Shown here: piece after piece, positions 4,349 to 39,439 of the stretch
How positions within the stretch are numbered: position 1 is the first letter of the stretch
Layout of the letters: the number at the start of each line of letters is the position of its first letter
Assembly (NCBI GenBank): GCA_030649305.1
Contig: JAUSFV010000005.1
Coordinates: 1-54,153, forward strand
Source of the DNA: a bacterium
GTDB lineage: Bacteria; Patescibacteriota; Minisyncoccia; Sungbacterales; GWA2-42-14
Length of the DNA stretch: 54,153 nt
Reading direction: 5' to 3'
Translations under genes and position numbers: made by a program
The notes under the pieces: generated by a model
Told to the model about the DNA's origin: nothing
Database searches by the model: none
What the model saw: only the letters and a program-made list of their open reading frames with translations

Positions 4349-5209
4349 ATGTCTCATCTTCACGATGACAAGATAAAATTTCTGGAAGAAACTGCGAATA
4401 ACGTCCGCCAGACCATTATTGAATCGCTGGTTGCGGCGGGGTCGGGACACACCGCGGGGCCGTTGGGCATGGCTGATATTTTTACAGGGCTCTATTTTCA
4501 TATTTTGAAACACGACCCGAAAAATCCCGAATGGGAGGAGCGCGACCGATTAGTGCTTTCCAACGGCCATATTTGCCCCGTGCAGTACGCGACGATGGCG
4601 CACGCGGGGTATTTTCCGTTGGAAGAAATGAAAACTTTACGAAAATTTGGTACACGCTTGCAGGGGCATCCGCACCGCGGGGCGTTACCCGGTATTGAAA
4701 CAACGTCGGGGCCGCTTGGTTCAGGACTTTCACAGGCGGTTGGCATGGCAATTGGATTCAAAATGGACAAGAAGCCAAATCAGGTTTTTTGTTTGATGTC
4801 GGACGGCGAGCAGGAATGCGGGCAGACGTGGGAAGCGGCAATGCTTGCGGGAAAATTGAAGCTGGATAATCTGACCGGCATTATTGACCGCAATAACATT
4901 CAGATTGACGGCATGACCGAAGATATTATGCCATTGGAATCGCTTCGCGCGAAGTATGAGGCATTTAACTGGCACGTTTTGGAAATTAACGGCCATGATT
5001 TTCAAGAAATCACAAACGCGGTTGAAGAAGCGCGCGCGATTTACGAAAAGCCGGTTTGTATTATTGCACACACCATTCCCGGCAAAGGCATTCCCGAAAT
5101 TGAGTTTGATTATAAGTGGCACGGCATTCCGCCGAATGCGGAGCAGGCAAAAGAATTTTTGGCGAAATTGCGCACGCTTGGCGGAAAGATACAAAGTGAG
5201 CATGAATGA
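4349..5209 (+). CDS. Transketolase, N-terminal (TPP-binding) subunit
   Basis: SGH, DRLVLSNGH, LQGHP, GPLGSGLSQAVG, SDGEQECGQTWEA, IDRNNIQIDG and WHG motifs. Confidence 0.95.
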   Translation: MSHLHDDKIKFLEETANNVRQTIIESLVAAGSGHTAGPLGMADIFTGLYFHILKHDPKNPEWEERDRLVLSNGHICPVQYATMAHAGYFPLEEMKTLRKFGTRLQGHPHRGALPGIETTSGPLGSGLSQAVGMAIGFKMDKKPNQVFCLMSDGEQECGQTWEAAMLAGKLKLDNLTGIIDRNNIQIDGMTEDIMPLESLRAKYEAFNWHVLEINGHDFQEITNAVEEARAIYEKPVCIIAHTIPGKGIPEIEFDYKWHGIPPNAEQAKEFLAKLRTLGGKIQSEHE

Positions 5210-6231: not shown

Positions 6232-6261
6232 AAGATTTACGATTTAAGAATTTTGAGAAAG

Positions 6262-6789
6262 ATGCTACGAACGATACAAAAAACAACCTTTTGGACAACG
6301 ATGGCTGTGGCATTTCTCACGGCAAGCGGTTTGATTTTTCAATCAAATTATGCGCTTGATCAGGAGACGCAATCTGTTTTTGCCGGCGTGGGCGAGAGTG
6401 TGATTCGTCCGGCTAAACCCATTGTTGATACCTCTGCATGGCTGCGGTATGAAAATAAGAGATACGATTTTTCGTTTCAATATCCGCCGGAATTAAAAAT
6501 ATTCAATTGTAGTGCGCAGGCACTTCTTTGCTTAAATATCGGTGAGAAAAACGAGGCATTTCAGGACAACGGTTTTGCAATTCGGATGTATTCATTGGCG
6601 GGCTTGAAACCAAGCGAGGAAGAAAAGTTTGTGACGGAGGAAATCGGTGGTGTTTCATGGCGCGTGAACCGCGATACGATTCAGTATTTTAGAACTGAGC
6701 ATCCCCAAGGCACAGAACTGCGGGTATTTGCAAATAAACCATTTGTGCTGGTTAGTACAATTTTGGGAACGTTTCAGATGCTTAAATAG
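6262..6789 (+). CDS. Membrane-anchored/secreted protein, PsbP-like domain
   Basis: N-terminal TM; W..YENKRYDFSFQYP motif typical of CPR PsbP-like proteins. Confidence 0.7.
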   Translation: MLRTIQKTTFWTTMAVAFLTASGLIFQSNYALDQETQSVFAGVGESVIRPAKPIVDTSAWLRYENKRYDFSFQYPPELKIFNCSAQALLCLNIGEKNEAFQDNGFAIRMYSLAGLKPSEEEKFVTEEIGGVSWRVNRDTIQYFRTEHPQGTELRVFANKPFVLVSTILGTFQMLK

Positions 6790-7525: not shown

Positions 7526-8530
7526 ATGCCTCTTAATCCACAAGCAAAATTAGTTTCAAATATTCTCGATGTAAAATCGCTTGAACAAAAACCGACGCGC
7601 GACGGGTTCGGTTTAGGTTTTGTGCAGGCGGCGGATGAAAATCCCGCAATCGTCGGGCTTTGTGCCGACCTTACCGAATCAACCCGCATGGATGTGTTTG
7701 CAAAAAAATATCCAGGTCGATTTGTAGAAATGGGGGTTGCGGAGCAAAATATGGCATCCGTCGCATCGGGGCTTTCAGCGGTCGGTAAAATTCCGTATCT
7801 CACGTCATATGCTATGTTCAGCCCAGGAAGAAATTGGGAGCAAATTCGTACAACCATTTGTTATAATAACAGAAATGTAAAAATTATCGGCTCGCACGCG
7901 GGGGTGTCGGTCGGGCCGGATGGCGCAACGCATCAGGCAATTGAGGATATTGCGATTACGCGCCCTATTGCGAATATGCAGGTGTTTGTACCCTGCGACA
8001 TGCACGAAGGAAAAAAAGTAACGTATGCCATTTCAAAGGTAGATGGGCCATGTTACGTTCGTTTTGCACGCGAGAAAACCCCCGTTTTTACTACGGAAGA
8101 AACGCTGTTTGAAATCGGAAAGGCGTATGCGTTTTGGCTTGAGCTAGAAGGTTTCAAGCCCGATGTTTCAATTATTGCTTGCGGTCCCCTGGTGCATAAC
8201 GCGATTCTTGCGGCTGCGGAATTGGAAAAAGAGGGATTGAAAATTCGCGTTATTAATAATCCCTCCATCAAGCCGATGGATGAGAAAACAATCATTCAAG
8301 CGGCAAAAGACGCGGGTGCGGTGGTTACCGTGGAAGAGCATCAGGTCGCGGGCGGTATGGGTTCTGCGGTTGCCGAAGTGCTCGCTAAAAATTACCCCGT
8401 GCCAATGGAATTTGTCGGTGTGCAGAATAGATTTGGTGAATCGGGTAACCCCAATGAACTTATTGAAGCGTTTGGTATGGGCGTATCTCATATCAAAGAA
8501 GCAGTTAAAAAAGTTTTAAAAAGAAAATAA
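7526..8530 (+). CDS. Transketolase, C-terminal (pyrimidine-binding + C) subunit
   Basis: ADLTESTR, EMGVAEQN, GPDGATHQAIED and TVEEHQ..GGMGS motifs. Confidence 0.95.
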   Translation: MPLNPQAKLVSNILDVKSLEQKPTRDGFGLGFVQAADENPAIVGLCADLTESTRMDVFAKKYPGRFVEMGVAEQNMASVASGLSAVGKIPYLTSYAMFSPGRNWEQIRTTICYNNRNVKIIGSHAGVSVGPDGATHQAIEDIAITRPIANMQVFVPCDMHEGKKVTYAISKVDGPCYVRFAREKTPVFTTEETLFEIGKAYAFWLELEGFKPDVSIIACGPLVHNAILAAAELEKEGLKIRVINNPSIKPMDEKTIIQAAKDAGAVVTVEEHQVAGGMGSAVAEVLAKNYPVPMEFVGVQNRFGESGNPNELIEAFGMGVSHIKEAVKKVLKRK

Positions 8531-9001
8531 ATGTCTCTCGTCAACGTACAAGACATTATGACAAAAGAAGTGATATCGGTGCATCCCGACATGCCCCTTC
8601 TTGAGGCTGCCAAAATATTATCAGAGCGTAATTTTGACGGCGTGCCGGTCGTGGATACAGATAATAAACTCGTCGGCATTCTTACGGAATATGACCTTAT
8701 TAGCAAGGAATCCATGATTCATCTTCCGACGTTTCAGAAAATTTTGCAAAATATCAAAGTTTTTAAAAAAGACCAGTCCGAGTTTCAAAAAGAAATTCAA
8801 GAGATATCTTTGCTTGTGGTACGAGATGTTATGAATACTGACCCCTTGACTCTTGGAGAACAGGCAACATTTATGGAAGTTCTTGATGCGTTTCGTAATC
8901 ATCATCGTGTCAATCCTATTCCGGTTATTGATTCTGACCGGAGGGTAGTCGGCGTTGTCAGCCGGTTTGATATTTTGAAACCGCTTCACGCTCTATCTTA
9001 A
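8531..9001 (+). CDS. CBS-domain protein
   Basis: Two CBS repeats (DIMTKEV..VPVVD..GILTEYDL; DVMN..IPVID..GVVSRFDI). Confidence 0.93.
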   Translation: MSLVNVQDIMTKEVISVHPDMPLLEAAKILSERNFDGVPVVDTDNKLVGILTEYDLISKESMIHLPTFQKILQNIKVFKKDQSEFQKEIQEISLLVVRDVMNTDPLTLGEQATFMEVLDAFRNHHRVNPIPVIDSDRRVVGVVSRFDILKPLHALS

Positions 9002-9068
9002 ATGCAGTTCTGCTTCTTTTCTGTTTTAACGTAGTTGTAAAACAGAGCGGAGAAAAATTGCGAAAGTT

Positions 9069-11336
9069 ATGGAGCCAAAACAAAAATGGAACGCAAGCCG
9101 TTCCGATACGCTCGTTGAGCGTGCATTTCAAGCGCTTACAAAAGAATATACGCTTGTCGGCAGAACTCATGTGCGGGTGTGGCAAGCATGGCTTCTTGGG
9201 GGGATTGCAGTTGGTATGGTTACGGGTATTCTTTTTGTCGCAAACAGAAGCGGACGATTTGAACTGAGCCGCGCAGAGCAGGCCCAGGGAGAATTGCAGG
9301 CGGCCTTATCGGCAAATATTCATGCGTTACAGGGCCTTACGCTCCAGCTTTTACACGAGAGTGATCTTGACAAAAAAATTGAGATTGCAAAAATACGGCT
9401 GGATACATTAGCGGCTCTTATAGAATTAAGCCCCGCTGACGCTTTGAAGGTTGCGCTTTCGGGAAAATTTCTTGCTTCGTTTTCAAAAGAAGTTCAACCT
9501 TATCTTGAACAAAATGTGACCGAAGAGGGCGAAGTTGAGGTGTTTCATGTTGATGGTACTGGTCCGGGCCAGCCCTTTACTGACGCATCCTCAAAGTTTC
9601 TTTATTTTATAAAAACAACTAAGGGGGAAAATCTCGGTATGTATTTTGCCGAAAATCCTCCCACAAATCTTGAGACGGGAGACCATATTCGAGTTCACGG
9701 ATTGAGGGTAAATAATACCCTTGCCCTTTCTTCCGGCGGCACCGGAAGCGTAACGACGCTCGCACTCGCGAACCCCAATACGTTTGGGCCGCAAAAAACA
9801 TTGCTTATGCTTGTGAATTTTACGGACAAAGCTACCCAACCGTACACGGTTGCGGCAGCTCAAAGCGTTATGAATACCACAAGCAACTTTGATAAAGAAA
9901 ATTCCTTTGCGCAAACATCGCTCATCGGTGTGGTAGATGCAGCTCAACCTGCCGATGTCGCGGGTTGGTTTACTATCAATCAGAGTTATACTGTTTGTAA
10001 TTCTAGTAATATTGCTACACTTGCTAAACAAGCAGCAACTGCTGCCGGATTTAATCTTTCTTCCTACACTCGCTATGTTTATGCGTTTCCCAGTAATGCG
10101 TGTACATGGTGGGGACTTGGCACGGTCGGCGGCAATCCTTCAAGTGCTTGGGTGAACGGAAGTTTTGCGCTGAAGGTGGTGGGGCACGAAATGGGCCATA
10201 ATTTTGGTCTGTATCATTCACATTCCCAGAGTTGTGCCGCGGGAACATGCACAACATCCGACTATGGCGATCTGTATGACATTATGGGAAATCCTTCCTC
10301 GGATCATTTTAATGCTTTTCAGAAAGAGAGACTGGGTTGGTTAAATTATAATGTTTCTCCGCCCATTACGAGTGTCACGTTAAGCGGGACCTATACCATT
10401 GCTCCGTACGAAATAAATGACATACAACCAAAAGCTTTAAAAATTTTAAAATCTTCCGGAACAACTAATACGTATTATTATGTTGAATATCGGGCAGGGT
10501 TAGGTTTTGATTCCGGAATTAACGCGGTCCTTGTACATACCGGCGCAAGTGCTAATTCAAGCAATCTTTGGGATTTGGATCAGGTTACTACGATTTCTGA
10601 TCGAATTTTGAATATCGGCCAGACGTATGATGATCCGACCGCCGGAGTATCCATAACATTGCAATCAATAGATAGCACCGGCGCTAACGTAGGAGTTGTG
10701 TTTGGTCCTGTTGTGTGTACGCCGGGAACTCCCAATATTGCAATTTCGCCTTCCAGCCAATGGGGCTCTCCTGGACAAGCCCTTTCATATACGGTTATGA
10801 CGACTAATACCGATAGTTCTTCTTGTTCGCCCGCAACCGTTCATGTTTCTTCTCAGCTTCCTGTCGGATGGTCGCAAACTCAGCCATCGTTTGATGTGGC
10901 GCTTTTGCCTGGCCAATCCGTAAATACTTCGGTAAGCATTACTTCGGCGTTAACGGCCGCAGAAGGGTATTATACTTTTTCTGAAACAGCAGCAAAAGAT
11001 TCGCTTTCTTCAAGCGCCTCCGCTAATTATAATGTTACTCTTCCTGATACTACATCGCCTGTGGTTACCATCAGTTCGCCGCAAGATGGCGCAATATTAT
11101 CGGCAAAAGGTTCAATTTCTGTCAGTGCCTCGGTATCTGACGCAAGTGGTATCGCATCAATTACTATTAAATTTGATGCGGGGACCTTAAAGACTTGCTC
11201 TTCTGTATCGTCTTGTTCTGCTAAATTACCCTTGTCAAAGGTTTCTTCCGGATCGCACACAATTACGGTAACCGCCACAGATGCTTCACCTGCGAAAAAC
11301 ACAAGCTCTAAATCAATTATGGTCACAAAACTATAG
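9069..11336 (+). CDS. Secreted/anchored metzincin metallopeptidase (M11 gametolysin-like) with NEW3-like and Ig-like C-terminal domains
   Basis: HEMGHNFGLYH zinc motif; YGD..DIMG Met-turn; HFNAFQKERLGW; C-terminal DTTSPVVTISSP Ig-like domain. Confidence 0.88.
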   Translation: MEPKQKWNASRSDTLVERAFQALTKEYTLVGRTHVRVWQAWLLGGIAVGMVTGILFVANRSGRFELSRAEQAQGELQAALSANIHALQGLTLQLLHESDLDKKIEIAKIRLDTLAALIELSPADALKVALSGKFLASFSKEVQPYLEQNVTEEGEVEVFHVDGTGPGQPFTDASSKFLYFIKTTKGENLGMYFAENPPTNLETGDHIRVHGLRVNNTLALSSGGTGSVTTLALANPNTFGPQKTLLMLVNFTDKATQPYTVAAAQSVMNTTSNFDKENSFAQTSLIGVVDAAQPADVAGWFTINQSYTVCNSSNIATLAKQAATAAGFNLSSYTRYVYAFPSNACTWWGLGTVGGNPSSAWVNGSFALKVVGHEMGHNFGLYHSHSQSCAAGTCTTSDYGDLYDIMGNPSSDHFNAFQKERLGWLNYNVSPPITSVTLSGTYTIAPYEINDIQPKALKILKSSGTTNTYYYVEYRAGLGFDSGINAVLVHTGASANSSNLWDLDQVTTISDRILNIGQTYDDPTAGVSITLQSIDSTGANVGVVFGPVVCTPGTPNIAISPSSQWGSPGQALSYTVMTTNTDSSSCSPATVHVSSQLPVGWSQTQPSFDVALLPGQSVNTSVSITSALTAAEGYYTFSETAAKDSLSSSASANYNVTLPDTTSPVVTISSPQDGAILSAKGSISVSASVSDASGIASITIKFDAGTLKTCSSVSSCSAKLPLSKVSSGSHTITVTATDASPAKNTSSKSIMVTKL

Positions 11337-11360
11337 AATGTTGTAGTGGATATAAAAAAT

Positions 11361-13184
11361 ATGGCTCAAAATAAATCATCGCAAAAAAGTCAGGCAGACA
11401 CGCTTGTTGAACGCACGTTTCAGGCTTTTAAAAAAGAATATGTGCTTGTGGGGAAAGCCCATGTGCGTGCGTGGCAGGCGTGGCTCATTCTTGGTATTGT
11501 GTTTGGCGCGATTGGTGCGGTTGTGTTGGTCGCAAATAGAAGCGGAAGATTTACTTCAAGCGACGCAACGGCGGGATTTTGGCAGGTTTCGGGAACGCGT
11601 TTTTTGAACCCCGCCGGAAGGCCCTCATGGATTCACGGAATGAATTTTGACATTGATTGGATGGCATCAGCCGGCGCCGGAGACTTTGCGACGATTCAGC
11701 AGTTTTTGAATGACGCAAAACAACTTGGCGTGCGAATAATCAGGGTTTTTCCGGAAGCACCAATTTCGGGAGACATAGAAAAACAAGGAATCGGTGTTTA
11801 TAATCCGGCGTGGTTTGACGGCATGCGTTTTATTCTTGATTTTGCCCGTCAGAATAATATGTATGTGCATGTGATTTTTGTGAAAGGGCCCGGTTATTAT
11901 ACAGGAACGCCATATGCCGGACAATTAATGAATCAACCTGCATTTTTTTCCTCACCGGAGGTTCGGAGCGCGTTAAAACAACGCTTGAAAGCGATGGCCT
12001 CTCCTTTCGTAAATGATCCTGCGATTTTCGCGTGGACAATTCTTACAGAACCGGAATTTAAAGTGGATACGGTAACGGGCATTTCGACTTTTTCTCCGGA
12101 TGTGTACGCCGATTTTACCATTGATCTTTCTTCGTTTCTCCGGAATGAAGTTGGGGTAAAACAGCTCATGACCGATGGCGCAATGATGGATGATGTGATT
12201 CGCTCGGGTATTCCGGCGAAGTATCCCGCGTTTGTTTCTTTTGTTGATTTTTTTACAAAGCATCAGTATGACACGGCTGAGGGCGGCATAGAAGGCATAA
12301 CTCAATGGGAAAATAGTTTGATGGCAGGCGCGAATTTATTGAAACCATGGTTCTTTGAAGAGTTGGGGCATAAAGATGATGATGGGTTTGCCGATGGCAA
12401 CCCGCCTACCTATTCTGATGCCGAGAATGCCTTATATTTTCAGAAACTTCTTTCTTTTTTGAAGACAACGGGCACTGGGGTGATGTTATGGAATATTTAT
12501 GGTCCGCATGAGTATGCGATTAATCCAAGGTTTACGGCAAAAACCGCGGAGGTGGTAGTCGGTGCATATATGGAGGTTCCCATACTTCTTTCACCAACAG
12601 ATGGAACGATTTTTTCTGCCACCACGACCTCGGTTGTTTTGCAATGGGCTCCGTTTGCGGGAGCAAGGGGGTATGGCGTGCGGGTTCAGGATTTGACTGA
12701 TGCAAACGCGAAAGACCCAAGAAGCAATTGCGCCAATACCAGCGGCTTATATTTTTGCAGCGATAATTATTCCACGGCCTCTCTTTCCATTCCGATCGTG
12801 GCGGGCCATTCGTATCGCTGGTGGATACACGCCATTGAAAGCACCGGCTGGTGGACTGATGCAAGTAGCGCGGGCTTTTCGGTTTCAATGTCGGGCGCGG
12901 ATACCACAAGTCCTTCCGTTTTCATCACAAGTCCCGTAAACGGATCAACCGTTAAAAGATTTTCTTCGGTTACCATAAACGGCTCCGCATCGGATAATAT
13001 TGGGATTACGAAGGTTGAGTTTTATGTGAATAATTCGATGATGTGCACCGACACTACCGTATTATATACGTGTTCTTGGCGAGTTCCTTCTAAACGGGGA
13101 GTTACATATCAGCTTCGGGCAAAAGCGTATGATGCGGTAGGAAATAGCAGTTTTTCTTCGGTTGTTTCGGTTACGTCGCGTTAA
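11361..13184 (+). CDS. Secreted/anchored GH5-like glycoside hydrolase (mannanase-like) with C-terminal Ig-like domain
   Basis: GVRIIRVF, AWTILTEPE (acid/base), HQY, FEELG (nucleophile), MLW; DTTSPSVFITSP Ig domain; alternative GTG start 11346. Confidence 0.8.
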   Translation: MAQNKSSQKSQADTLVERTFQAFKKEYVLVGKAHVRAWQAWLILGIVFGAIGAVVLVANRSGRFTSSDATAGFWQVSGTRFLNPAGRPSWIHGMNFDIDWMASAGAGDFATIQQFLNDAKQLGVRIIRVFPEAPISGDIEKQGIGVYNPAWFDGMRFILDFARQNNMYVHVIFVKGPGYYTGTPYAGQLMNQPAFFSSPEVRSALKQRLKAMASPFVNDPAIFAWTILTEPEFKVDTVTGISTFSPDVYADFTIDLSSFLRNEVGVKQLMTDGAMMDDVIRSGIPAKYPAFVSFVDFFTKHQYDTAEGGIEGITQWENSLMAGANLLKPWFFEELGHKDDDGFADGNPPTYSDAENALYFQKLLSFLKTTGTGVMLWNIYGPHEYAINPRFTAKTAEVVVGAYMEVPILLSPTDGTIFSATTTSVVLQWAPFAGARGYGVRVQDLTDANAKDPRSNCANTSGLYFCSDNYSTASLSIPIVAGHSYRWWIHAIESTGWWTDASSAGFSVSMSGADTTSPSVFITSPVNGSTVKRFSSVTINGSASDNIGITKVEFYVNNSMMCTDTTVLYTCSWRVPSKRGVTYQLRAKAYDAVGNSSFSSVVSVTSR

Positions 13185-13245: not shown

Positions 13246-13325
13246 AAGGCGGTAGGTTTAATGTATCCTCGTTTCTTTATTCGCATATTTGCTCGTCAAA
13301 CATGCGTTGGGGGGGGGTAATATAT

Positions 13326-16300
13326 ATGAAAAAATTTATACTATCAATCATGTTGGGGGCTTTTTTGATAAGTCCGGTTTTTGCGTTCGCGCAAACAACG
13401 AATGATGCGCTTATCGCGCAGTTGCAAGCACAAATCGCGTCTTTACAGGCTCAGATCAATGTGCTTATCGCGCAGCAGGGGGGTACTCCTTCGTCTTCGG
13501 TGAGTTTTCAAAACGGCGACAGGGTTGAGGTCGCGGCATCGGTGCTTGCGGTTCGCAATGCCCCCACTACTTCCGGAGTGATCGTGGGGAAAGTATCCGT
13601 TGGAATGAAAGGCACGATACGGTGTGACGCGTCGTCATCGAATTTTTCTTGTCCGACGGCAGCAAGCGGTTATACATGGTGGTACATAGATTGGGATAAT
13701 TCGTCTTTGCCGAACGGCTGGTCCGCAGAAGGAACTTCGGAGGCGATATTTTTGACGAAGATACCGTCGGTCACAGAAGAACCGAATCCTGCGTCGTATG
13801 TATCAATTTCGGTCCCTCAAACATTGCAAGTTGGCAAGTCGCAACAAGTGTTCGCAAAATTAGTAACAACCGACGGAAAAAGTCAGGATGTTACTTTGGA
13901 GACAGAGTGGAGTTCGTCCGATTCAAAAATAGTCAGAATTGGTGGAGCGTCTTGTCCTGCAGGAACATATTGTGCGCAGGTGCTCAATGGATACTATGTG
14001 TATGGAGACGCCCCGGGGACTGCGGTTATCACTGCGACGTATCAAGGCATGACACAACAGACAAAAGTTACGGTTACGCAAATATTGGTTGAAGTTTCTC
14101 CTTCTATTACTATTCTTTCTCCAAACGGGGGCGAGACGTGGATGGTTGGCTTCCCGCAAACAATAAAATGGATAAGCAGTAATTTTCCATCTGATCGGAA
14201 GATAGATGTTGTGAGATTAAGGGATTCCTATGGTAAAGAAATCTATCTTTTATACGGGACGATTAACGACGGTTTTGAGCAAATTGTCGTGCCTTCCGTA
14301 CCCGCTGGTCCGTATACGCTTGAAATAAAAACATATTCTTCAAGCGGTGAATTGATTTTTGACGCGAGCGACGCGCCGTTTAGTATTGTTTCCTCCGGCA
14401 CTTGGCAGGAAATCGGCTCTCTTTCTGTGTCGCTTGATTCTTCAAACACCGCGTATTATATTGCCGCAGCCGGAACAAATGATAATAATCTCGCAATGCT
14501 GAAATTTCATGCGGCTAATGAAGCGATCAATTTGAAGAAAGTTGGGTTGCAGCTTTCAATGACTTCTTTTAATTCGCCGCAGGACCTGGTTAATGAGAAA
14601 GTAACTTTGTGGGATGGCGCGACGAAAGTCGGTGAGGCGATCTTCACGACGCAAACTCCTGACTTCGCGACATCAACTCTGACAGCCGACTTTATTATCC
14701 CTAAAGATGGCGACAAACTCATGACTATTCGGGGAAGCTTTGCGCCGATTGGGGTCGCGCAACCAGGAACGCCGGGGGCATGGGTGGTCGTTGATTATGA
14801 CGGATCGAATAGGCTCGGCACCCAGGGAGTTGGCATGTCATCAGGAAATACGATATATACTTCAACGGCGTATGATACGGCATCAAACGGCGTTCATGTT
14901 TTTAGATCATATCCGACGGTTGCAAAAATTGATGTGACCGGAGCTTTGATTTCGGGTCGCCGCGACCTCTTGAAGTTCAAAATTACCGCAGCTCCGCAGG
15001 GCGATGTCGGTATTGCGAAATTTGCTATCAGAACTCAAATTTCTTCCGTAACCCCCGGCTCATTGCTTGATAATATTAATCTGTACGCGTATAACGATTC
15101 TTCTTTTTCTTCCGTTGCTTCGGGTATTCAATCCGACGGCGCGCTACAGCTTACGTATACAAGCAGCGGCAGTACCGGAGGAACGTATTATATATATCCG
15201 AGAAATGCGAGTGGTCAAAATACGGCATTTCTTATTCCTGCGGGTCAGACACGTTACTTTGTGGTGCGGGGCGACGTAACCCTTGCGGGAGAAACAGTAA
15301 GCGTGGTTACTCAGCTTCTTGGTGATAGTGTCGGGAATGTTGGTCTTCGGACGGTCGCGGAGATTGATTCGACGGCATATGATAATTTTATCTGGTCGGG
15401 CAACTCTACTACCACCGCAACGGTTTTGCATCGTGATTGGTCAAGCGGTTATCTTGTGCCTGGATTGCCCGAAGGCGGTTTCAGCCAGACGTTTACGGGA
15501 GGCGGCGGTGGGCAAACCCCCTCCATCATCGTTCTTTCACCGAATGGGGGGGAGGCCTTTGTTGCCGGATCGCAGATGACGGTTCGGTGGTCTACTCAGA
15601 ATTTTCCAAATGCTCCGATTAACCTCTACCTTTTTACTAGCAACGTTACTCCTCCGACTGAGTCGAGTTATCAATGGGTTGCAAATATCGCTTTTCAGAC
15701 AGCTAATGATGGATCAGAAACGTGGACTATTCCCACAAATATTATTTCTGGGTCTCGATATTTCGTTCGCATTCTTGGGTACGATCAGACTGGATATACT
15801 TTTCCGAGCGGTTGTTTAGACGGTTGTCGTAATGACGACAGCGACGCGTCGTTTAGTATTGTGGGCACCACCTCTACACTCAAAAGCACTATTCAGGGCT
15901 ACAAAATTGATTCGGCAGGCAACGTGTTTACTAATCCCGGCGCAATCATTACCGTAAGCGGCGCGGTGAATCAGACCTATGGCACATCCGCCAATCCCTA
16001 CTTTGCTCAGCAAATTCCCGCAGGGAACTATACCGTCTCTTCATCCGTGCCAAGCGGCTACACAGTATCGTATTCGCTTTGTACAAACTGCATTGACCAC
16101 CCTGCGTCCAGTTATGTTTCGGGAAACTCGGTCAGCGTGAACGCGCCATCAGGAGGCTATGCGGATTTGTGGTGGAAGTATACGCTTCAGATATCAGGAC
16201 AAAGTGTTGCCATCTCCCGCACGCCGCAAACTTCATTTTCATCGCCCTACCGCACCGGTAGTGCCACCACTCTCAATGCTACGGTTTCTTCATCTTTATT

Positions 16301-17597
16301 CTCCACCGATCAGCAAGTAAAAGTGTATCGTAAAATCGGAACCGGTTCTTCGTTTGTGAGTGATATGACAACCACGTTTGCGTTGCGCGATAACGGTGTT
16401 TGTAACCCTTCGGCGGGTACCTGCAGTGTCGCAGGAATATGGAGCGAATTTTCTTGCCCCACCGGCGTTTCAGGCGTTCAGCAGATGACCGAATGGGTGA
16501 CGATTGGCAGTGTAACGTCAAATCAAATCCAATGGTGGTTTGAGTGCAGTAGTACGGTTGCTGCTGAACAGCCTGTTACCATTTTGCAGTCTTGGCCTAC
16601 AGCGCCAAGCGCTCAGCCCGGCCAGTCATTCTCTCTCACCTACAATTGGAGCGGAGGCCCGACAAGCAGTTCAAAACAGGTTTTTGTGCATTTTGTAAAT
16701 AGCGCGGGTCAGATTGTATTTCAGGATGACCATACGCCACCCGTGCTTACGAACCAGTGGTCCGGTACGAGAAACTATACGCGTACTATTACCGTTCCCG
16801 CGTCAACGGCTGTGGGAACCTACCGTATTATGGCAGGGCTCTATGACCTTGCTACCGGAGCGCGTCTTACTCTTACTTCTACTTCCGGTTCGGGGGTAAT
16901 TGCTGATACGCAGGATTTGCTTCGGTATCAGATTGGGACATTGACGGTTTCGAGTTCTCTGGCCGTTACTTCTTCTCTCAACGCGTCAGGAGGCTTTTCT
17001 GCAAAGCAGGGCGACAAGAGTTGGTTTTATATGTACGCAAAACCTGTCGGTTCTACACAACCCACGCTTTTGACAAATATGGAAAAATTTGACGGAACTC
17101 AAAATCGTTGGCAGGGTGGTGATGAACAGTACCTTTTACTTTGGGGCAGTGGCGGGCATCCTGGAGTGAATGCCGATGCGGTGCGCCGTTGGGTCGCGTC
17201 CGTGGCGGGAAATGTTGTTTTGAAGGGTAAGGCTTTTGATGGGCATGTCGGATGTGGTACGGATGGCGTTGTAGTCTCTATTAGAAAAGCAAGCGGTAAT
17301 GGCTCAACTCTTCTGTGGGGGCCACATACGATTCAGAAAGATAGCACAGTCGGGGTTTCCTATGATAATGTGTCGGTATTTTTGAATGCGAATGAGGGGC
17401 TTGATTTTGTTATTAGCAGGGGAGTTGATGACGGTTGTGATTCGACCGTGTTTGATCCTACTATAATATTTACTCCGCAATCGTCGGGCGCTGGTTCTCT
17501 GGATTCCGAGAAGCAATTTGCGAGTATTCTTTCATCAATACAAGCACAGCTTAACGAAATTGCGAACGCAATTAGGATGTTAATGATTCGGCGATAA
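13326..17597 (+). CDS. Large modular surface protein (signal peptide, coiled coil, SH3-like, Ig-like and SPNGGE-type modules)
   Basis: MKKFILSI..AFA signal; LIAQLQAQIASLQAQI coil; two ILSPNGGE modules; S/T/G-rich beta composition; alternative ATG 13302. Confidence 0.9.
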   Translation: MKKFILSIMLGAFLISPVFAFAQTTNDALIAQLQAQIASLQAQINVLIAQQGGTPSSSVSFQNGDRVEVAASVLAVRNAPTTSGVIVGKVSVGMKGTIRCDASSSNFSCPTAASGYTWWYIDWDNSSLPNGWSAEGTSEAIFLTKIPSVTEEPNPASYVSISVPQTLQVGKSQQVFAKLVTTDGKSQDVTLETEWSSSDSKIVRIGGASCPAGTYCAQVLNGYYVYGDAPGTAVITATYQGMTQQTKVTVTQILVEVSPSITILSPNGGETWMVGFPQTIKWISSNFPSDRKIDVVRLRDSYGKEIYLLYGTINDGFEQIVVPSVPAGPYTLEIKTYSSSGELIFDASDAPFSIVSSGTWQEIGSLSVSLDSSNTAYYIAAAGTNDNNLAMLKFHAANEAINLKKVGLQLSMTSFNSPQDLVNEKVTLWDGATKVGEAIFTTQTPDFATSTLTADFIIPKDGDKLMTIRGSFAPIGVAQPGTPGAWVVVDYDGSNRLGTQGVGMSSGNTIYTSTAYDTASNGVHVFRSYPTVAKIDVTGALISGRRDLLKFKITAAPQGDVGIAKFAIRTQISSVTPGSLLDNINLYAYNDSSFSSVASGIQSDGALQLTYTSSGSTGGTYYIYPRNASGQNTAFLIPAGQTRYFVVRGDVTLAGETVSVVTQLLGDSVGNVGLRTVAEIDSTAYDNFIWSGNSTTTATVLHRDWSSGYLVPGLPEGGFSQTFTGGGGGQTPSIIVLSPNGGEAFVAGSQMTVRWSTQNFPNAPINLYLFTSNVTPPTESSYQWVANIAFQTANDGSETWTIPTNIISGSRYFVRILGYDQTGYTFPSGCLDGCRNDDSDASFSIVGTTSTLKSTIQGYKIDSAGNVFTNPGAIITVSGAVNQTYGTSANPYFAQQIPAGNYTVSSSVPSGYTVSYSLCTNCIDHPASSYVSGNSVSVNAPSGGYADLWWKYTLQISGQSVAISRTPQTSFSSPYRTGSATTLNATVSSSLFSTDQQVKVYRKIGTGSSFVSDMTTTFALRDNGVCNPSAGTCSVAGIWSEFSCPTGVSGVQQMTEWVTIGSVTSNQIQWWFECSSTVAAEQPVTILQSWPTAPSAQPGQSFSLTYNWSGGPTSSSKQVFVHFVNSAGQIVFQDDHTPPVLTNQWSGTRNYTRTITVPASTAVGTYRIMAGLYDLATGARLTLTSTSGSGVIADTQDLLRYQIGTLTVSSSLAVTSSLNASGGFSAKQGDKSWFYMYAKPVGSTQPTLLTNMEKFDGTQNRWQGGDEQYLLLWGSGGHPGVNADAVRRWVASVAGNVVLKGKAFDGHVGCGTDGVVVSIRKASGNGSTLLWGPHTIQKDSTVGVSYDNVSVFLNANEGLDFVISRGVDDGCDSTVFDPTIIFTPQSSGAGSLDSEKQFASILSSIQAQLNEIANAIRMLMIRR

Positions 17598-21848: not shown

Positions 21849-24800
21849 ATGCACATCTTTTCTTCCAGAAAAATATATACCAAGGTCGTTTCATTTCTCG
21901 TAACCTTGTTATTTTTAATTGAATCAACGCTCTTGCCGATTATAACGCTTCTGCCTCGCGCTGCGTCAGCCGCGACGACGACATTTACTGCTTCGGCAGA
22001 TTTTTCCACTAGTACCCAGGGTCAAAAAAACTGGTGGTATCTTTCATCCTCCGGCGCGCAGATGACGTATGATTCCGCAAATAGTCGTTGGAAAGGGAAT
22101 GAAGAATATTTATTGCTTGGAAGTAACTGGGGGCATCCGGGTAATAACGCGGATGCGCTTCGCCGCTGGATTGCACCGCAGGCGGGCAGCATTCGTATTA
22201 CCGGAAACGCGCGTGACAGTCACGCCGGATGCGGTACTGATGGCGTTACGGTTACCATCCGTAAGGTTGTTAATAATGCTATTGTCGCTACATTGTGGAA
22301 TCAAACAATTCCCAAAGATAATACGACCGGTTATAACTTTGACGTCACAACGTCCGTCAGTCAGGGAGATTCTATTGATTTTGTTATCAACAAAGGGATT
22401 GATAATGGTTGTGATTCAACCGTGTTTGATCCGACGATTGTGCTTACCGCATCAGCTGCCGGTTCGTGGGGTGTTTCTATTGATTCGGGAAAAGCGGGGA
22501 CATTTCCAAACCCTGTTGTTCGCGGCAAGCCCGTTGATTTTCTGGCGACGCTGACAGTAACCGATCCGCCGTCTCCCTTGAATTTCAAACTAGAGGTATC
22601 AAAGGATTTGGTTCTCCGTCATTACTACATTACACGGACGGGGGGACAAGAAACCGCGCTGAACGATCCATCCCGTCCCGCGGCAACGCTCGCCAATCGA
22701 ACTGCATATGTCTGGGATTTCTATAATTTGACCACCGGCGTATATACGTTGCGGTTTAATTTTGACGTGCCGTTGACAACCACAGAGACAAGCGCGCAAT
22801 TTGATATTTTTATGGCCGGTCTTCATAGTGGTTATGGCTCCGGTTATCAAGATCAGTCTTTTCCGGTGCCGGCGCTGACGTTTCCTTCCGGGGCGAGTGT
22901 GTCGCAGGGAACGCCGCTTATCGTTGCAATCGCGAATGCGACTGGCAATACAACGGTATATGTTAATTGCATTGTTCCGACTGGTGCTGTATGCGCTGAC
23001 AATCTTGCGGAGGGCATAACGAATGCTTCGGGTCAATGGAGTAAGAGTTATGATACCTCGGGATGGACTCTTGGAACATATCGCGCCTGGGTCAGCGTAG
23101 GAGGGTTAAAATCAAATCTTGGATTTTTTACTATCACGCAACCCTCAACCTTGCCTTCTACCATCCAGGGCTACAAGATTGATTCTTCCGGCGCTGTCTT
23201 CTCAAGCCCCGGTGCTACCATTACCGTTGCCGGTTCATCATTCAGCCAATCCTATGGTCCCACTACCAATCCGTATTTTGCCCAGCAAATTCCGGCGGGA
23301 AATTACACTGTTACCTCATCTGTTCCCACCAGCTACACTGTTTCGTATTCTCTCTGCTACAATTGCGCGAACAATACCGACCCCCATCCCGCATCAAGCT
23401 ATGTTTCGGGGCCTTCAGTATCGGTAAGCGCTCCCGCAGACGGTTACGCTGATGTATGGTGGAAGTATACCCTCCAGACATCGGGACAATCCGTCTCTAT
23501 TTCGCGAACCCCCGCAACGTCTCAAACAAATCCCTATCGCACGGGTAGTGCCACCACATTCAATGCCACGGTTTCTCCATCATTGTTCTCCACGGATCAG
23601 CAAGTAAAGGTGTATCGTAAAATCGGAAACGGTTCTCCTTTTGTGAGCGATACCTCAACCACGTTTGCTCTCCGCGACAATGGTGTTTGTAACCCTTCGG
23701 CGGGTACTTGCAGTATCGCAGGAACATGGAGTGAATTTACCTGTCCCACCGGCGTTTCAGGCGTTCAGCAGATGACCGAATGGGTGACGATTGGCAGTGT
23801 AACGTCAAATCAAATCCAATGGTGGTTTGAGTGTACAACGGCCGCCAGTCAGCCCGTCACTATTCTTCAGTCTTGGCCTACAACGCCAAGCGCCCAGCCC
23901 GGTCAGTCATTCTCTCTCACGTATAATTGGAGTGGAGGCCCGACAAGCAGTTCAAAACAGGTTTTTGTGCATTTTGTAAATAGCGCGGGTCAGATTGCGT
24001 TTCAGGATGACCATACGCCGCCCGTGCTTACGAACCAGTGGTCCGGCGCGAAAAACTATACGCGCACCGTTACCGTTCCCGCGTCAACGGCTGTGGGAAC
24101 CTACCGTATTATGGCAGGGCTCTATGACCTTGCTACCGGAGCGCGTCTTACTCTTACTCCCGGTTCAGGGGTAATTGCCGATACGCAGGATTTGCTTCGG
24201 TATCAGATTGGGACATTGACGGTTTCGAGTTCTCCGAGTGCTCAATTTGAAATTCGTCCCGCAAGCGCATCGCTTTCAGTTGGCCAAACGCAAACGCTCG
24301 CCGCGTGGTTTATGCCTGCTGGCGGATCGGCGTCGGATGTTACGAGTCAAACGCAATGGTCATCTTCCAATGCCGCAGTCGCGGAATTAGGCGCGCCTCC
24401 GGGTTCAAACGCGAACAACACCGTCCTTGGCCGTGCGGCAGGCAGTGCGGTGATTACCGCAACGTATCAGGGGCAGACGGCGCAGGCGATGGTGACGGTT
24501 GGTACATCAGGAACGCAACTGGTCGTTTCAAAAATTGATTTTTCTGACCTGCTTCTTTCCGGTCGCCGTGATCTCTTGAGATTCAAAATTGCAGCACCTT
24601 CGGGGAGTGATGTGGGCATTGCAAAGTTTACTATTCGTAATTCTATTACTTCTGCATCATCCGGCTCTTTAATTGATAATTTGAATATATACGCGTATAC
24701 CGATTCTAGCTTTTCTACGGTTGCTTCCGGCGTCCAAGCTGACGGTTCGTTACAAGTTTCTCATGCGCGTACTGGGGGCATTTCAGGCGCAGAAGTTGAT

Positions 24801-27800
24801 GTATACGCCCAAAATACAGGCGGAAGTAATACCCTTGTTAATATTCCTGCGGGTCAGACTCGCTGGTTTGTTGTTCGGGGTGATGTAACTATAGCGGGGA
24901 CTAGTGTGAGTTCCGTGTCCGCTCTTTCGGGTGATGCAAGCGGGGCGGGGTCGGGGACGTTTTCGTCAGTGAATTCGGCAGCGAATAACAACTTTATTTG
25001 GGCGTCGAATTCTGCAGGTAAATCGCTTTCTACGATAACTAATTTTCAAAATGGGTATGGCATAAATGGGTTGCCCGTAAGCGGATTAAGCCAAACACTT
25101 ACCGGCGGAGGAGTGGTTACCCCCTCCACCATCCAAGGCTACAAGATTGATTCTTCTGGCGCTGTCTTCTCAAGCCCCGGTGCTACCATCACCGTTACTG
25201 GCTCTTCGTTCAATCAATCCTATGGTCCTATCACCAATCCGTATTTTGCCCAGCAAATTCCCGCGGGAAACTACACCGTCACCTCATCCGTTCCTACGGG
25301 CTACACTGTTTCGTATTCTCTCTGCTATAATTGCGCGAACAATGCCGACCCTCATCCCGCGTCCAGTTATGTAGCGGATTCTTCAGTATCGGTAAACGCT
25401 CCCGCAGGCGGCTACGCTGATGTATGGTGGAAGTATACCCTCCAGACATCGGGACAATCTATCGTCATTTCCCGCACTCCCCAAACTTCAACCGTATCTC
25501 CATTCAAAGCAGGGGATACGACTACCTTCGCCATGACGATTCCTTCGTCACTCTTTCTTGATACCACTGCGGTTACGCTGCATAGTCAAATGACCGGCGG
25601 CGCTGACCAGCAATCAAACTATACCGTTGCTTCGTTGAAATCCGCGAATGTCTGCAACACCTCCGGTTCTTGTTCGGTCACCGGCGTCTGGAACGCATCC
25701 CAATTCACCTGTCCCGCGGGCGTTTCCGGTACTGCGCAGATGAAAGAATGGGTGACGGTGGGCAATACGACGTCAAATCAGATTCAGTGGTATTTTCAGT
25801 GTGAAGGAGATGCAATTGAGGGCGTGTTATTTGAAATTCGTCCCGCAAGCGCATCGCTTTCAGTTGGCCAAACGCAAACGCTCGCCGCGTGGTTTACGCC
25901 TGCTGGCGGATCGGCGTCGGATGTTACGAATCAAACACAATGGTCATCTTCCAATCCCGCGGTCGCGGAATTGGGCGCGCCTCCGGGTGGAGCCGTAAAT
26001 AATATTGTGCTGGGTCGCGCAAACGGCGCTGCGACGATTACCGCAACGTATCAGGGGCAGACGGCGCAGGCGACGGTTACTGTAGGATCTGAAGTTGCGG
26101 CTTTTGCACTTGACCTCAAAGTAAATAATGCTGATGGACCCGTTAGCGTCCAAGTGAATACTCCCGCTACCGTTTCGTGGACTACGCAAGGGTTTAGTGC
26201 GGGTGGTATGCGCTGTTCAACATCCGGCGCCCCAACTGGTTCGCCGTTCCATACCGCATCCGGCGTTTCTGGCTCGGTGCAAGTAACATTCCCGCAAACG
26301 CAAAGCTACACGTTGCAGATGACCTGTTTTGACGATTTGCGCGTAACGGCAAATGGGTCAATACCTTCTGCTTCCGATAGCGTTACGGTAAATGTGGCCG
26401 CTGTTCCTTCGGGTCTTTCTGCACCAACCCCCGAAACCGCGCCGATGGATGTTTTGCGTCTGCAAAGCGATCAGGATGTGGTTACCACTACGGGCTTTTG
26501 TTATAATTTTACCTGTACAGGCCTAATTCCGGTAACCGCAGGAAGCGTATACACATTTTCCGCAAACCTGAATGCGGGTCTTGTTGGATTTCCGCAGGAT
26601 TCGCTTTTGTGGATTACGTTACCTCCGCAGGCAACGCTTTTTGGTATTATTTTGGATAGTAGAACGCTTACGAGTGGGACCGATTATGTGCTAGACCGTG
26701 GTCATTATAAACTTTCAATGAGCCAACTCGGACTTTTGTCGGGTACTCATTCAATCAAAGTTGCACTTCAATCAGATCCTTTGGCGCTTGACCACTTGGC
26801 TGTGCTCAAAATGAACATCACTGACGGCGGCCTTACAAAAACTTTCATTCGTGAACGTACCGCGTCAGTATCGGTGCGTCATGCCGTTACCGAGGTTATC
26901 GGAAAAACCAATATCTCTATCCCAGGTGCTAGCCCTTACCCGCCATATTTTCCGACTATTCAAGAAAGTGATGTGCATCGTTTGCAGACATATCCGGCTC
27001 CTGCCCAAATCTGTGATGCAAGCGCTGGAACGGGCATAAAATGCAGACCTCCGTCTTTGAGAGAGGCCTCCGGGCCGGTTTCGCGCGGTGTCCCTACTAT
27101 TGCTTATACACTGCTTGGCGATGTCGTGCCGATATATGTAAATCAGTTTTCCGATTCGTTGAGCCGCGAGTTTATTATCGCAAATTATAACTTCTTACTT
27201 GGTCGCAATCCGACTGATGCGGAAATGCAAAAATATCTTTCGCTTTTTACGCAATGGCGTGATCCGGTAAACGAACTTATTGATGTATATAAGCGGAGAG
27301 TTGATGTGCAGGAGGCAATGAAAGCGGCAACCCCGTTTCCTTGCGGGAATTTAGGAGATTGTATTATTCCTCTTACCCTTGCTGACACAAGTCGGACGCC
27401 TTTGTATAACTGGGCGTATAGTTTTGGCGCAAACGAAGAACCGACACTGAAAGCATTTAAAGAGAACGTAAGCCAGCAAGCGCTTGATGTATTGCGCCAG
27501 GTTTGGAATGACTATAATAGTAAGCTTGAGGCGGCATATAAGTTGTATCAGCAAAACACCAATTCAATCTGTTTTTCTTGTACACCGCCTCCGCCTCCGC
27601 TTTGTGCGCGCGTATTTGCAGAACCATATATAGTCAATGGTCTATATAATTATAAAAGCTATTTTGACTCTTGTCGTCAGCAGGCGATTCTTTGGGCGAA
27701 AAATGCAGGATGGGCTAGCGCTGTAAGGCTTGGAGCTTCCTCTTTCTCTTTTGATTCGTCTATACCCACCATTGGTCAAACGCTCGCACCTTACTTTGCT

Positions 27801-39182: not shown

Positions 39183-39326
39183 GGCCCCATTTTGTAACTG
39201 TGGTTACGCTGTAGACAAAATCGGAGCTAGTAGTTAGGACATGTGGTTCTTTCACCCACCCAAATTTTTATGGCCTCATCGTCTAGTGGTCAGGACGTAT
39301 GGTTCTTTCACCCTCCCACCTTTTAT
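39183..39326 (+). pseudogene. Two degenerate tandem copies of the tRNA-Glu 5' half
   Basis: Unit B (39272-39307) is 29/36 identical to the tRNA 5' half; unit A is more decayed and interrupted by a 30-bp hairpin insert (39191-39220). Confidence 0.75.
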
Positions 39327-39398
39327 GCCCCTGTCGTCTAGTGGTTAGGACGCATGGTTCTCATCCATGCAACCGGAGTTCGATTCTCCGCAGGGGCG
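39327..39398 (+). tRNA. tRNA-Glu (CTC)
   Basis: Acceptor gcccctg/caggggc; anticodon arm catgg-ttCTCat-ccatg; T arm cggag-ttcgatt-ctccg; CCA not encoded. Confidence 0.95.
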
Positions 39399-39439
39399 TA
39401 GGAAAAGGTGGGCGGGCAAGTCTATAAAACCGGGGCACG

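Follow-up and report, generated by a model that had tools for sequence, protein, structure and literature searches.

The 54,153-nucleotide contig JAUSFV010000005.1 (referred to as the window), from a bacterium of the Patescibacteriota, carries two adjacent forward-strand genes, ORF1 and ORF2, whose products begin with the same block of sequence, a probable export and sorting signal that is the subject of this analysis. ORF1 (9069..11336, 755 amino acids (aa)) consists of the N-terminal block, a helical linker, a metzincin-like zinc protease, an NPCBM_assoc domain and a Big_7 domain. ORF2 (11346..13184) encodes 612 aa from the GTG at 11346, or 607 aa from the ATG at 11361 used in the public gene call, and comprises the block, a GH5-like core, a beta-rich middle domain and a Big_7 domain. 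Translation of 9105-9260 (DTLVERAFQALTKEYTLVGRTHVRVWQAWLLGGIAVGMVTGILFVANRSGRF) and 11397-11552 (DTLVERTFQAFKKEYVLVGKAHVRAWQAWLILGIVFGAIGAVVLVANRSGRF) gave two sequences of 52 aa that align without a gap and are identical at 34 positions, exactly as a sequence-only reading of the window had described (111 of the 156 nucleotides are identical). Comparison of ORF1 with 100 shuffled versions of ORF2 gave a mean of 12.9 identities for the best ungapped 52-mer and a maximum of 15. BLASTP stretched the match to 37 of 60 residues (E 8e-21) and found no similarity in the stretch that lies between the block and the C-terminus of the two proteins. Both blocks run into an S-x-A motif (SRA, residues 67-69 of ORF1; SDA, residues 72-74 of ORF2), and no further copy was found in the 54 kb window beyond these two.

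The regions that follow the block are quite different in the two proteins. The metalloprotease core of ORF1 (9813..10517) contains the zinc-binding motif HExxHxxGxxH as HEMGHNFGLYH (residues 373-383; 10185-10217) and scored 27.5 bits against Reprolysin_3 (E 5e-6), above the Pfam cut-off of 22.4, and 32 bits against the M6 domain model TIGR03296 (E 1e-7), far under the NCBIfam cut-off of 110.8. On motif and family model the protein appears to be a metzincin-type zinc metalloprotease, and we call it metzincin-like without choosing a subfamily. For the GH5-like (mannanase-like) core of ORF2 (11637..12497) the score against Pfam Cellulase was 19.0 bits (E 0.001), short of the cut-off of 23.5, while residues 105-351 matched the beta-mannanase 3wfl with E 1.1e-6, the GH5 mannanases of the PDB as a whole giving E values from 1e-6 to 0.05. 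By eye, candidate TEPE (234) and FEELG (337) motifs could be picked out, and a single-sequence AlphaFold2 (AF2) model of ORF2 had a pLDDT of 37.5 and was unusable for assigning a fold. A search of 5.8 billion proteins revealed no close homologue of ORF2, outside similarity being found only through its Big_7 domain. The immunoglobulin (Ig)-like C-terminal ends noticed earlier in both proteins are indeed Big_7 domains (PF17957; gathering threshold 24.1 bits), at 11058..11270 in ORF1 (50.2 bits, E 4.1e-13) and at 12912..13118 in ORF2 (67.8 bits, E 1.3e-18); both open with DTTSP, and the tails are 31% identical (24/78, E 3e-7, BLASTP).

A profile built from the two window copies was run exhaustively with HMMER against 1.84 billion cluster representatives (50% identity clusters) and matched 316 protein clusters at E<=1e-3 and 126 at E<=1e-10, and the block is clearly not confined to this pair of paralogues. 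The best 150 of the 316 matches were inspected, 137 of them with a complete block aligned; the block was N-terminal in all 150, starting at a median of residue 7 and at residue 29 at the latest among the 137 complete blocks. The expectation that a profile search would uncover other cargo was borne out by a Pfam scan of 83 full-length members, which found 44 unrelated cargo families, none in more than eight members, including Laminin_G_3, Beta_helix, fn3, Kre9_KNH, Peptidase_S8, Big_7, pectate-lyase-like and sulfatase domains as well as GH39, BNR, purple acid phosphatase and FG-GAP. All of the families seen are characteristic of extracytoplasmic proteins. Block-headed proteins ranged from fragments to 1,386 aa among the database matches, and block-headed reading frames in the related loci that were fetched (L numbers below) extended up to about 2,700 codons before the contig ended. 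When ORF1 and ORF2 were compared with the genes of 40 related loci, similarity was nearly always limited to the first 55-80 residues, with Big_7 in addition in a few; the protease region of ORF1 was shared only by L037, L032 and part of L024, and the core of ORF2 had no counterpart in these 40 loci. The top database match (P0004) had the order block-sulfatase-Big_7, which places a third core in the same frame as those of ORF1 and ORF2.

These results upheld the central idea of the sequence-only reading, an undescribed export signal of the candidate phyla radiation (CPR) carried by swappable cargo, with hundreds of carriers, and removed from it the Ig tail, which is an optional accessory, incidental and outside the signal, because Big_7 was present in only 4 of the 83 scanned members. 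The block sequences had no match in Pfam-A (E<=10), NCBIfam (E<=1) or the PDB, and the members that were seen are labelled at NCBI either as 'hypothetical protein' or by the name of the cargo domain. Literature searches on the motif, on extended CPR signal peptides and on Giovannonibacteria signal peptides found no description of the block, and the parts of a CPR protein-family survey that we consulted (bioRxiv 10.1101/335083) report many unannotated membrane and extracellular CPR families and give no account of such a signal. A word-indexed protein search returned nothing for the two-sequence block and only five short proteins for a 65-sequence alignment, the index being insensitive to so short a module.

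The 137 aligned blocks (residues numbered by family column) describe a module of about 57 residues, comprising a short, presumably cytoplasmic helix, a membrane helix, an NRSG-F motif and Ser-x-Ala, with the consensus LVERALKALKKEYVVVGKTRVRSWHAWLIIGLVAGIAAGIILVANRSGEFE-a-S-r-A. A variable polar tail of 5-30 residues precedes a net-basic amphipathic segment of about 28 residues (consensus LVERALKALKKEYVVVGKTRVRSWHA), in which K15, K16, K23, R25 and R27 against E8 and E17 give a net positive charge. This is followed by an 18-residue hydrophobic transmembrane (TM) helix with Gly at i, i+4 and i+8 (G36, G40 and G44 in 134, 136 and 105 of the 137; G-x3-G-x3-G, a Gly-zipper) and by an 11-residue exposed segment, NRSGEFE-x-[SG]-x-A. 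The near-invariant residues are W29, W32, G36, G40 and V48-A49-N50-R51-S52-G. In ORF1 the basic segment corresponds to residues 13-40 (9105..9188), predicted to form a cytoplasmic helix from the family alignment, AF2 and the periodicity of conservation; the TM helix, WLLGGIAVGMVTGILFVA, to residues 41-58 (9189..9242); and the extracytoplasmic segment, NRSGRFELSRA, to residues 59-69 (9243..9275). The ORF2 block occupies residues 18-74 (11397..11567), with the n-helix at 11397-11480, the TM helix at 11481-11534 and NRSGRFTSSDA at 11535-11567.

Conservation ends abruptly at the last residue of the module. The Ala at this position, 11 residues past the TM helix, was present in 128 of the 137 blocks, with S, G, T or A at -3 relative to a cut after it in 126 and a variable residue at -2. 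Pro was never found at +1 (0/137), compared with 6-7% Pro in the downstream sequence, and occurred five times at +2. Information content falls from 3.1 bits at the Ala to less than 1 bit at the next residue and to 0.2-0.4 bits beyond. The block has the sequence features expected of a signal peptidase I substrate, with a positive n-region ahead of an h-region, -3 and -1 occupied by small residues and Pro absent from +1. The S-x-A pointed out earlier behaves across the family like a signal-peptidase site; the -3/-1/+1 pattern predicts cleavage at A69↓E70 in ORF1 and A74↓T75 in ORF2. AF2 with the family alignment modelled residues 2-46 as one helix and NRSG...A as coil (pLDDT 78), and the periodicity of conservation was strongest at 95-100 degrees (3.6 residues; permutation p 0.04), which we interpret as a conserved stripe, including L14, Y18, V21, W29 and W32, that would span both the cytoplasmic and the membrane parts of the helix. 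In 83 of 89 members the block supplied the sole TM segment, neither LPXTG nor an anchor at the C-terminus was found in these 89, and the first 30 residues past the Ala contain no Ser/Thr/Pro-rich stalk. Other exoproteins of the window carry ordinary short signals (PVFAFA↓Q for the gene at 13302, RAASA↓A at 21849 and HVQA↓A at 48670).

Immediately upstream of ORF1 lies a gene for a CBS-pair (Bateman module) protein (8531..9001, forward strand, 156 aa; Pfam CBS E 4e-34, two CBS motifs), a generic Bateman module without a specific characterised relative. The related loci were collected with an exact-pattern search for VANRSGEF (a 12-sequence subset) and are biased toward that subfamily; this was countered with five members chosen without the pattern (L038-L042). 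Across the loci the block genes form same-strand tandem arrays of one to four (two in the window, three in L016 and L038, three plus a degenerate fourth in L039, four in L042). Orthologues of the window CBS-pair gene (155-160 aa, E 1e-46 to 1e-72; motifs HLPTFQKIL and HHRVNPIPV) lay beside or within the block cluster at about 16 of 21 distinct loci, near-identical contigs having been collapsed and only loci with enough flank counted, and at four of the five pattern-independent loci. The CBS-pair gene is usually just upstream, its stop codon overlapping the block-gene start or 1-17 nt from it; the distance from its stop to the first block-gene start ranged from -23 to +156 nt, with 67 nt in the window. 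In L008 and L036 it lies immediately downstream instead, in L024 it is within the array, and in L042 it comes after the array with one small gene in between. The linkage recurs in at least six wider contexts: transketolase...PfkB in the window and its relatives, PsbP_2...PaaX (L008), TrxB...GroES/EL (L038), a Laminin_G protein upstream (L039), pilMN and a methyltransferase...DsbA/VKOR (L040) and rpmJ/rpsM downstream (L042). Inherited synteny would not easily produce such recurrence, although the carriers are related and the link is one of context. The tandem arrays and their linkage to the CBS-pair gene are both new here. The linkage is the strongest contextual clue, and the CBS-pair protein is a candidate for a partner in the cytoplasm or for a regulator transcribed together with the array. 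A promoter and terminator scan of 7.4-18.8 kb of the window found no sites above those in shuffled sequence.

Two further groups of sequences touch on this linkage. A 104-aa metagenomic fragment (P0086) has the block starting at residue 52, past a short linker, and an N-terminus like that of the CBS protein over its first ~25 residues (MTGLSIRDIL...RPETTL); either CBS and the first block gene were joined by a deletion, or the assembly is chimeric. A distinct block subfamily with HSWYAWAIVGIVFGMALGIVYVANRSAQFSAS (L038 8992-12594, P0058, P0098, P0114, P0128 and others) has Tyr for His30, Ala for Leu33 and AQF for GEF, and is also preceded by a CBS gene, a more divergent one.

The named carriers, about a dozen members, were metagenome-assembled genomes (MAGs) of Ca. 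Giovannonibacteria, Ca. Sungbacteria, the 'Parcubacteria group' and the 'Patescibacteria group', the others being unclassified 'bacterium' MAGs. Every named carrier is a member of the Parcubacteria or Patescibacteria, in agreement with the earlier proposal of a CPR signal. In its content the window resembles CPR genomes, and its gene order is shared with carrier MAGs, both in the run from split transketolase through CBS to the block genes and in DnaB-CysS-CorA. The source samples were groundwater metagenomes (DNA); the block locus was present in DNA metagenomes only and absent from the RNA runs searched, and a scan of viral contigs for the block found none.

The view that ordinary signals are not so conserved, and that the YSIRK and ESPR signals are known analogues, fits the near-invariant residues found across hundreds of proteins. 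Compared with an ordinary Sec type I signal, whose positive n-region, hydrophobic h-region and -3/-1/+1 pattern it shares, the predicted signal is about 66 rather than about 25-35 residues long and has near-invariant residues (W29, W32, G36, G40, VANRSG) where the ordinary signal is degenerate. Judged on sequence features, it would work most closely like YSIRK/GXXS and more loosely like ESPR and KxYKxGKxW, and it is a member of none of them. Like YSIRK/GXXS (PF04650, TIGR01168) it has a conserved motif inside a putative Sec signal peptide, heads unrelated cargo in a restricted lineage, is used by cells that also employ ordinary signals and includes an h-region with conserved Gly. The YSIRK/GXXS motif is necessary and sufficient for septal targeting, through trans-acting factors that are still largely unknown (PMC12004944), and by analogy we propose such a pre-translocation or placement role for the block. 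It differs in having no sequence similarity to YSIRK/GXXS (no YSIRK-type motif or model matched it at E<=10 in Pfam or E<=1 in NCBIfam), in its much greater length, with ~55 conserved residues over the n-, h- and c-regions, in the lack of LPXTG in its carriers and in the linked CBS gene. ESPR (PF13018) likewise is an N-terminal extension that gives an unusually long signal (50-60 residues) to large secreted or surface proteins, but it belongs to diderm Proteobacteria and is a ~25-residue extension ahead of a normal signal, whereas in the block the TM and post-TM parts are conserved too; PF13018 did not match the block and was not among the 25 listed of the 44 families from the 83 full-length members. 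The KxYKxGKxW signal (TIGR03715), also a lineage-specific conserved n-region motif of large surface proteins, gave no model match to the block, and the loci examined showed no sign of an accessory Sec locus. The block is also an N-terminal mirror image of the C-terminal tripartite signals (LPXTG/sortase, PEP-CTERM/exosortase, GlyGly-CTERM/rhombosortase), which have a motif at the outer membrane face, a TM helix and a basic cytoplasmic cluster and are carried by many unrelated cargo proteins in restricted lineages. Being N-terminal, however, it must also act as an export signal, and its motif ends in a signal-peptidase-like S-x-A instead of a transpeptidation site. The cognate enzymes of the C-terminal signals were reportedly identified through phylogenetic profiling.

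Several other explanations for a block of this kind were considered. That it is an ordinary signal peptide, alike in ORF1 and ORF2 only through recent tandem duplication or gene conversion, might be suggested by the adjacency of the two genes and by the close likeness of some tandem copies elsewhere (93% aa identity in L042). However, as had been noticed from the sequence, synonymous differences between the two window blocks are many: over the 62-codon frame, codons differ at 17 of the 37 identical residues, with dN of 0.27-0.30 and dS (nonsynonymous and synonymous substitutions per site) of 1.1-1.2 (0.30 and 1.20 by NG86 over 62 codons). Tandem block paralogues at ten loci including the window had protein identities of 51-93% and nucleotide identities of 59-88%, with dN of 0.05-0.37 and dS mostly from 0.5 to more than 2 and often saturated; in most pairs nucleotide identity was only 59-76%, against 51-89% for protein, and dS was saturated. 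Because the synonymous sites of paralogous blocks are saturated, selection on the block acts on the protein, both for the window copies and at the other tandem loci. Hundreds of carriers in many genomes with unrelated cargo, together with these dS values, refute recent duplication as the cause of the identity, and we find this explanation scarcely credible. The dS values bear equally on a reading in which the 5' DNA segment, under selection as DNA, is a homology handle by which a hypervariable locus exchanges its cargo cassettes. The number of block genes and their cargo between CBS and the downstream conserved genes do vary among related genomes, as such a handle would predict, but low nucleotide identity and saturated dS, with no long identical tracts that could support recombination, led us to reject it as highly improbable; for the same reasons gene conversion is not the explanation. 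A variant of the twin-arginine (Tat) signal or of the prepilin (class III) leader would account for the long n-region, the Gly/Ala-rich h-region, the basic residue past the TM helix and the T-R-V-R that precedes it. Yet the [ST]RRxFLK motif of Tat signals (TIGR01409) is lacking, there being no consecutive arginines (column 25 is R in 86 and H in 36, column 27 R in 63, K in 35 and H in 28), and Tat export is implausible for repeat cargo as long as 2,700-3,900 residues. There is no G↓F...E5 site of the prepilin type (TIGR02532), since the conserved G22 sits nine residues ahead of the TM helix and no conserved Glu lies inside it. Neither signal model gave a match in NCBIfam or Pfam, and both possibilities were rejected as very unlikely.

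A closer competitor is an uncleaved type II signal anchor that stays in the membrane of the ultra-small cell and keeps hydrolases and adhesin-like proteins tethered to the cell surface, with the cytoplasmic helix and Gly-zipper serving for oligomerisation or for docking to a partner in the cytoplasm or the membrane. In favour of this, the TM helix has a stable length and a G-x3-G face like that of glycophorin (glycophorin A was matched weakly), the helix as a whole is long, continuous and strongly conserved, and the cargo has no other anchor, so that a tether would keep the enzymes from diffusing away. On the other hand, an [SG]-x-A with a variable -2 position, a +1 position never taken by Pro and conservation that stops at exactly that point are the signature of signal peptidase I. 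We regard such an anchor as possible but rather unlikely, and on the sequence features favour cleavage over anchoring by roughly 2:1, because it is hard to see what the -3/-1/+1 pattern would do in an anchor, and the Ala is not followed by a stalk-like linker. Instead we favour, with a probability of about 0.6, the interpretation that the block, specific to one clade of Parcubacteria (Ca. Giovannonibacteria and relatives), is a modular N-terminal signal for export and sorting which has been shuffled onto unrelated extracytoplasmic cargo, is exported through Sec and cleaved after the Ala, and is served by a dedicated factor. Some of the results weigh against this interpretation. The h-region (18 residues) and c-region (11) are long for a cleaved bacterial signal and also fit a stable signal anchor, and a sharp conservation boundary would be expected for an anchor module too. 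The CBS-pair gene was missing at 5 of the ~21 distinct loci (L001, L005/L021, L027, L032, L041), and where present its association could in part be synteny inherited within one clade. Restriction to one lineage, finally, is read from organism names that are known for about a dozen of the block members.

According to the cleaved-signal interpretation, domain shuffling would have fused the block to many unrelated extracytoplasmic proteins. Its basic segment would be held in the cytoplasm by the positive-inside rule while the module inserts N-in/C-out through Sec, and type I signal peptidase would then cut after the near-invariant Ala, removing a signal of ~66 residues (69 in ORF1, 74 in ORF2) and releasing the cargo, here the metalloprotease and the mannanase-like hydrolase. 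Before or during translocation the conserved stripe of the helix would contact a dedicated factor that governs targeting, timing or placement. Such a factor is most likely, because ordinary signals need no conservation of this degree and the same genome also uses ordinary ones. The leading candidate, suggested by gene context (adjacent genes, often with overlapping stop and start codons), is the CBS-pair protein.

The block array of the window sits in a sugar-phosphate cluster, with RpiB, Rpe and Tkt on one side followed by PfkB, a class II aldolase and a 2-hydroxyacid dehydrogenase. Transketolase is split into an N-terminal gene (4349-5209) and a C-terminal gene (7526-8530) about 2.3 kb apart, with unannotated ORFs between them (for example 6253-6789, which has no Pfam match); in L004 the halves are ~0.8 kb apart. 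Right after the block genes, 13302-17597 encodes a 1,431-aa exoprotein with an ordinary signal (AFA↓Q), a Kre9_KNH domain and Gln/Ala/Ile-rich heptad-like stretches near both ends (AQLQAQIASLQAQINVLIAQ... and ...SSIQAQLNEIANAIRMLM), and its homologues follow block genes in L006 and L034. Further along, 21849-29465 encodes a 2,538-aa giant in which an ordinary signal peptide is combined with Big_2 repeats and, at the C-terminus, a PG_binding_1 domain, in a region with a local GC of 0.50-0.52 against ~0.45 for the rest of the window. L039 has a 3,913-aa giant with PG_binding_1 after its block array, with a degenerate block-like N-terminus (E 0.003). In L042 an AAA ATPase gene (8900-10021; ATPase_2/AAA_14/DUF4143) is inserted within the four-block-gene array, and the blocks of the genes that flank it are the most similar seen; their 93% aa identity and dS of 0.45 suggest a recent duplication. 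A small gene of the 23S_rRNA_IVP type (four-helix bundle) lay within a few kb of block genes in L008, L011, L027, L029 and L034, loci without other shared context; this recurrence is probably coincidental, as such genes are common in CPR. The window also contains the 3' end of a 23S rRNA (1-291), a 5S rRNA (642-759) ~350 nt away and a single tRNA-Glu(CTC) (39326-39399).

CPR bacteria, or Patescibacteria, are thought to live on other cells, and to our knowledge almost nothing is known of how their surface and secreted proteins are sorted. The ~57-residue signal provides a direct sequence handle on one set of exported proteins in a large clade of Parcubacteria, which includes proteases, glycosidases, sulfatases, subtilases and adhesin-like proteins of several thousand residues; as a curated Pfam or NCBIfam model it would help to annotate proteins now called 'hypothetical protein', and it is short enough to be tested by reporter fusion in a cultivable monoderm. 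The linked CBS gene supplies a concrete candidate for a trans-acting factor, the counterparts of which for YSIRK/GXXS are largely unknown (PMC12004944). A bolder idea, which we consider improbable, is that the block and the CBS-pair protein form a previously unknown dedicated sorting pathway of the Parcubacteria, in which a nucleotide-sensing Bateman protein would bind the cytoplasmic helix and control when or where a whole regulon of hydrolases and giant surface proteins is exported, for instance at the site of host contact or only in a permissive energy state; delivery to the host-contact site, which the sequence-only reading had also raised, is speculation. If true, the block and the CBS protein would together constitute an N-terminal counterpart of the sortase and exosortase-type systems.

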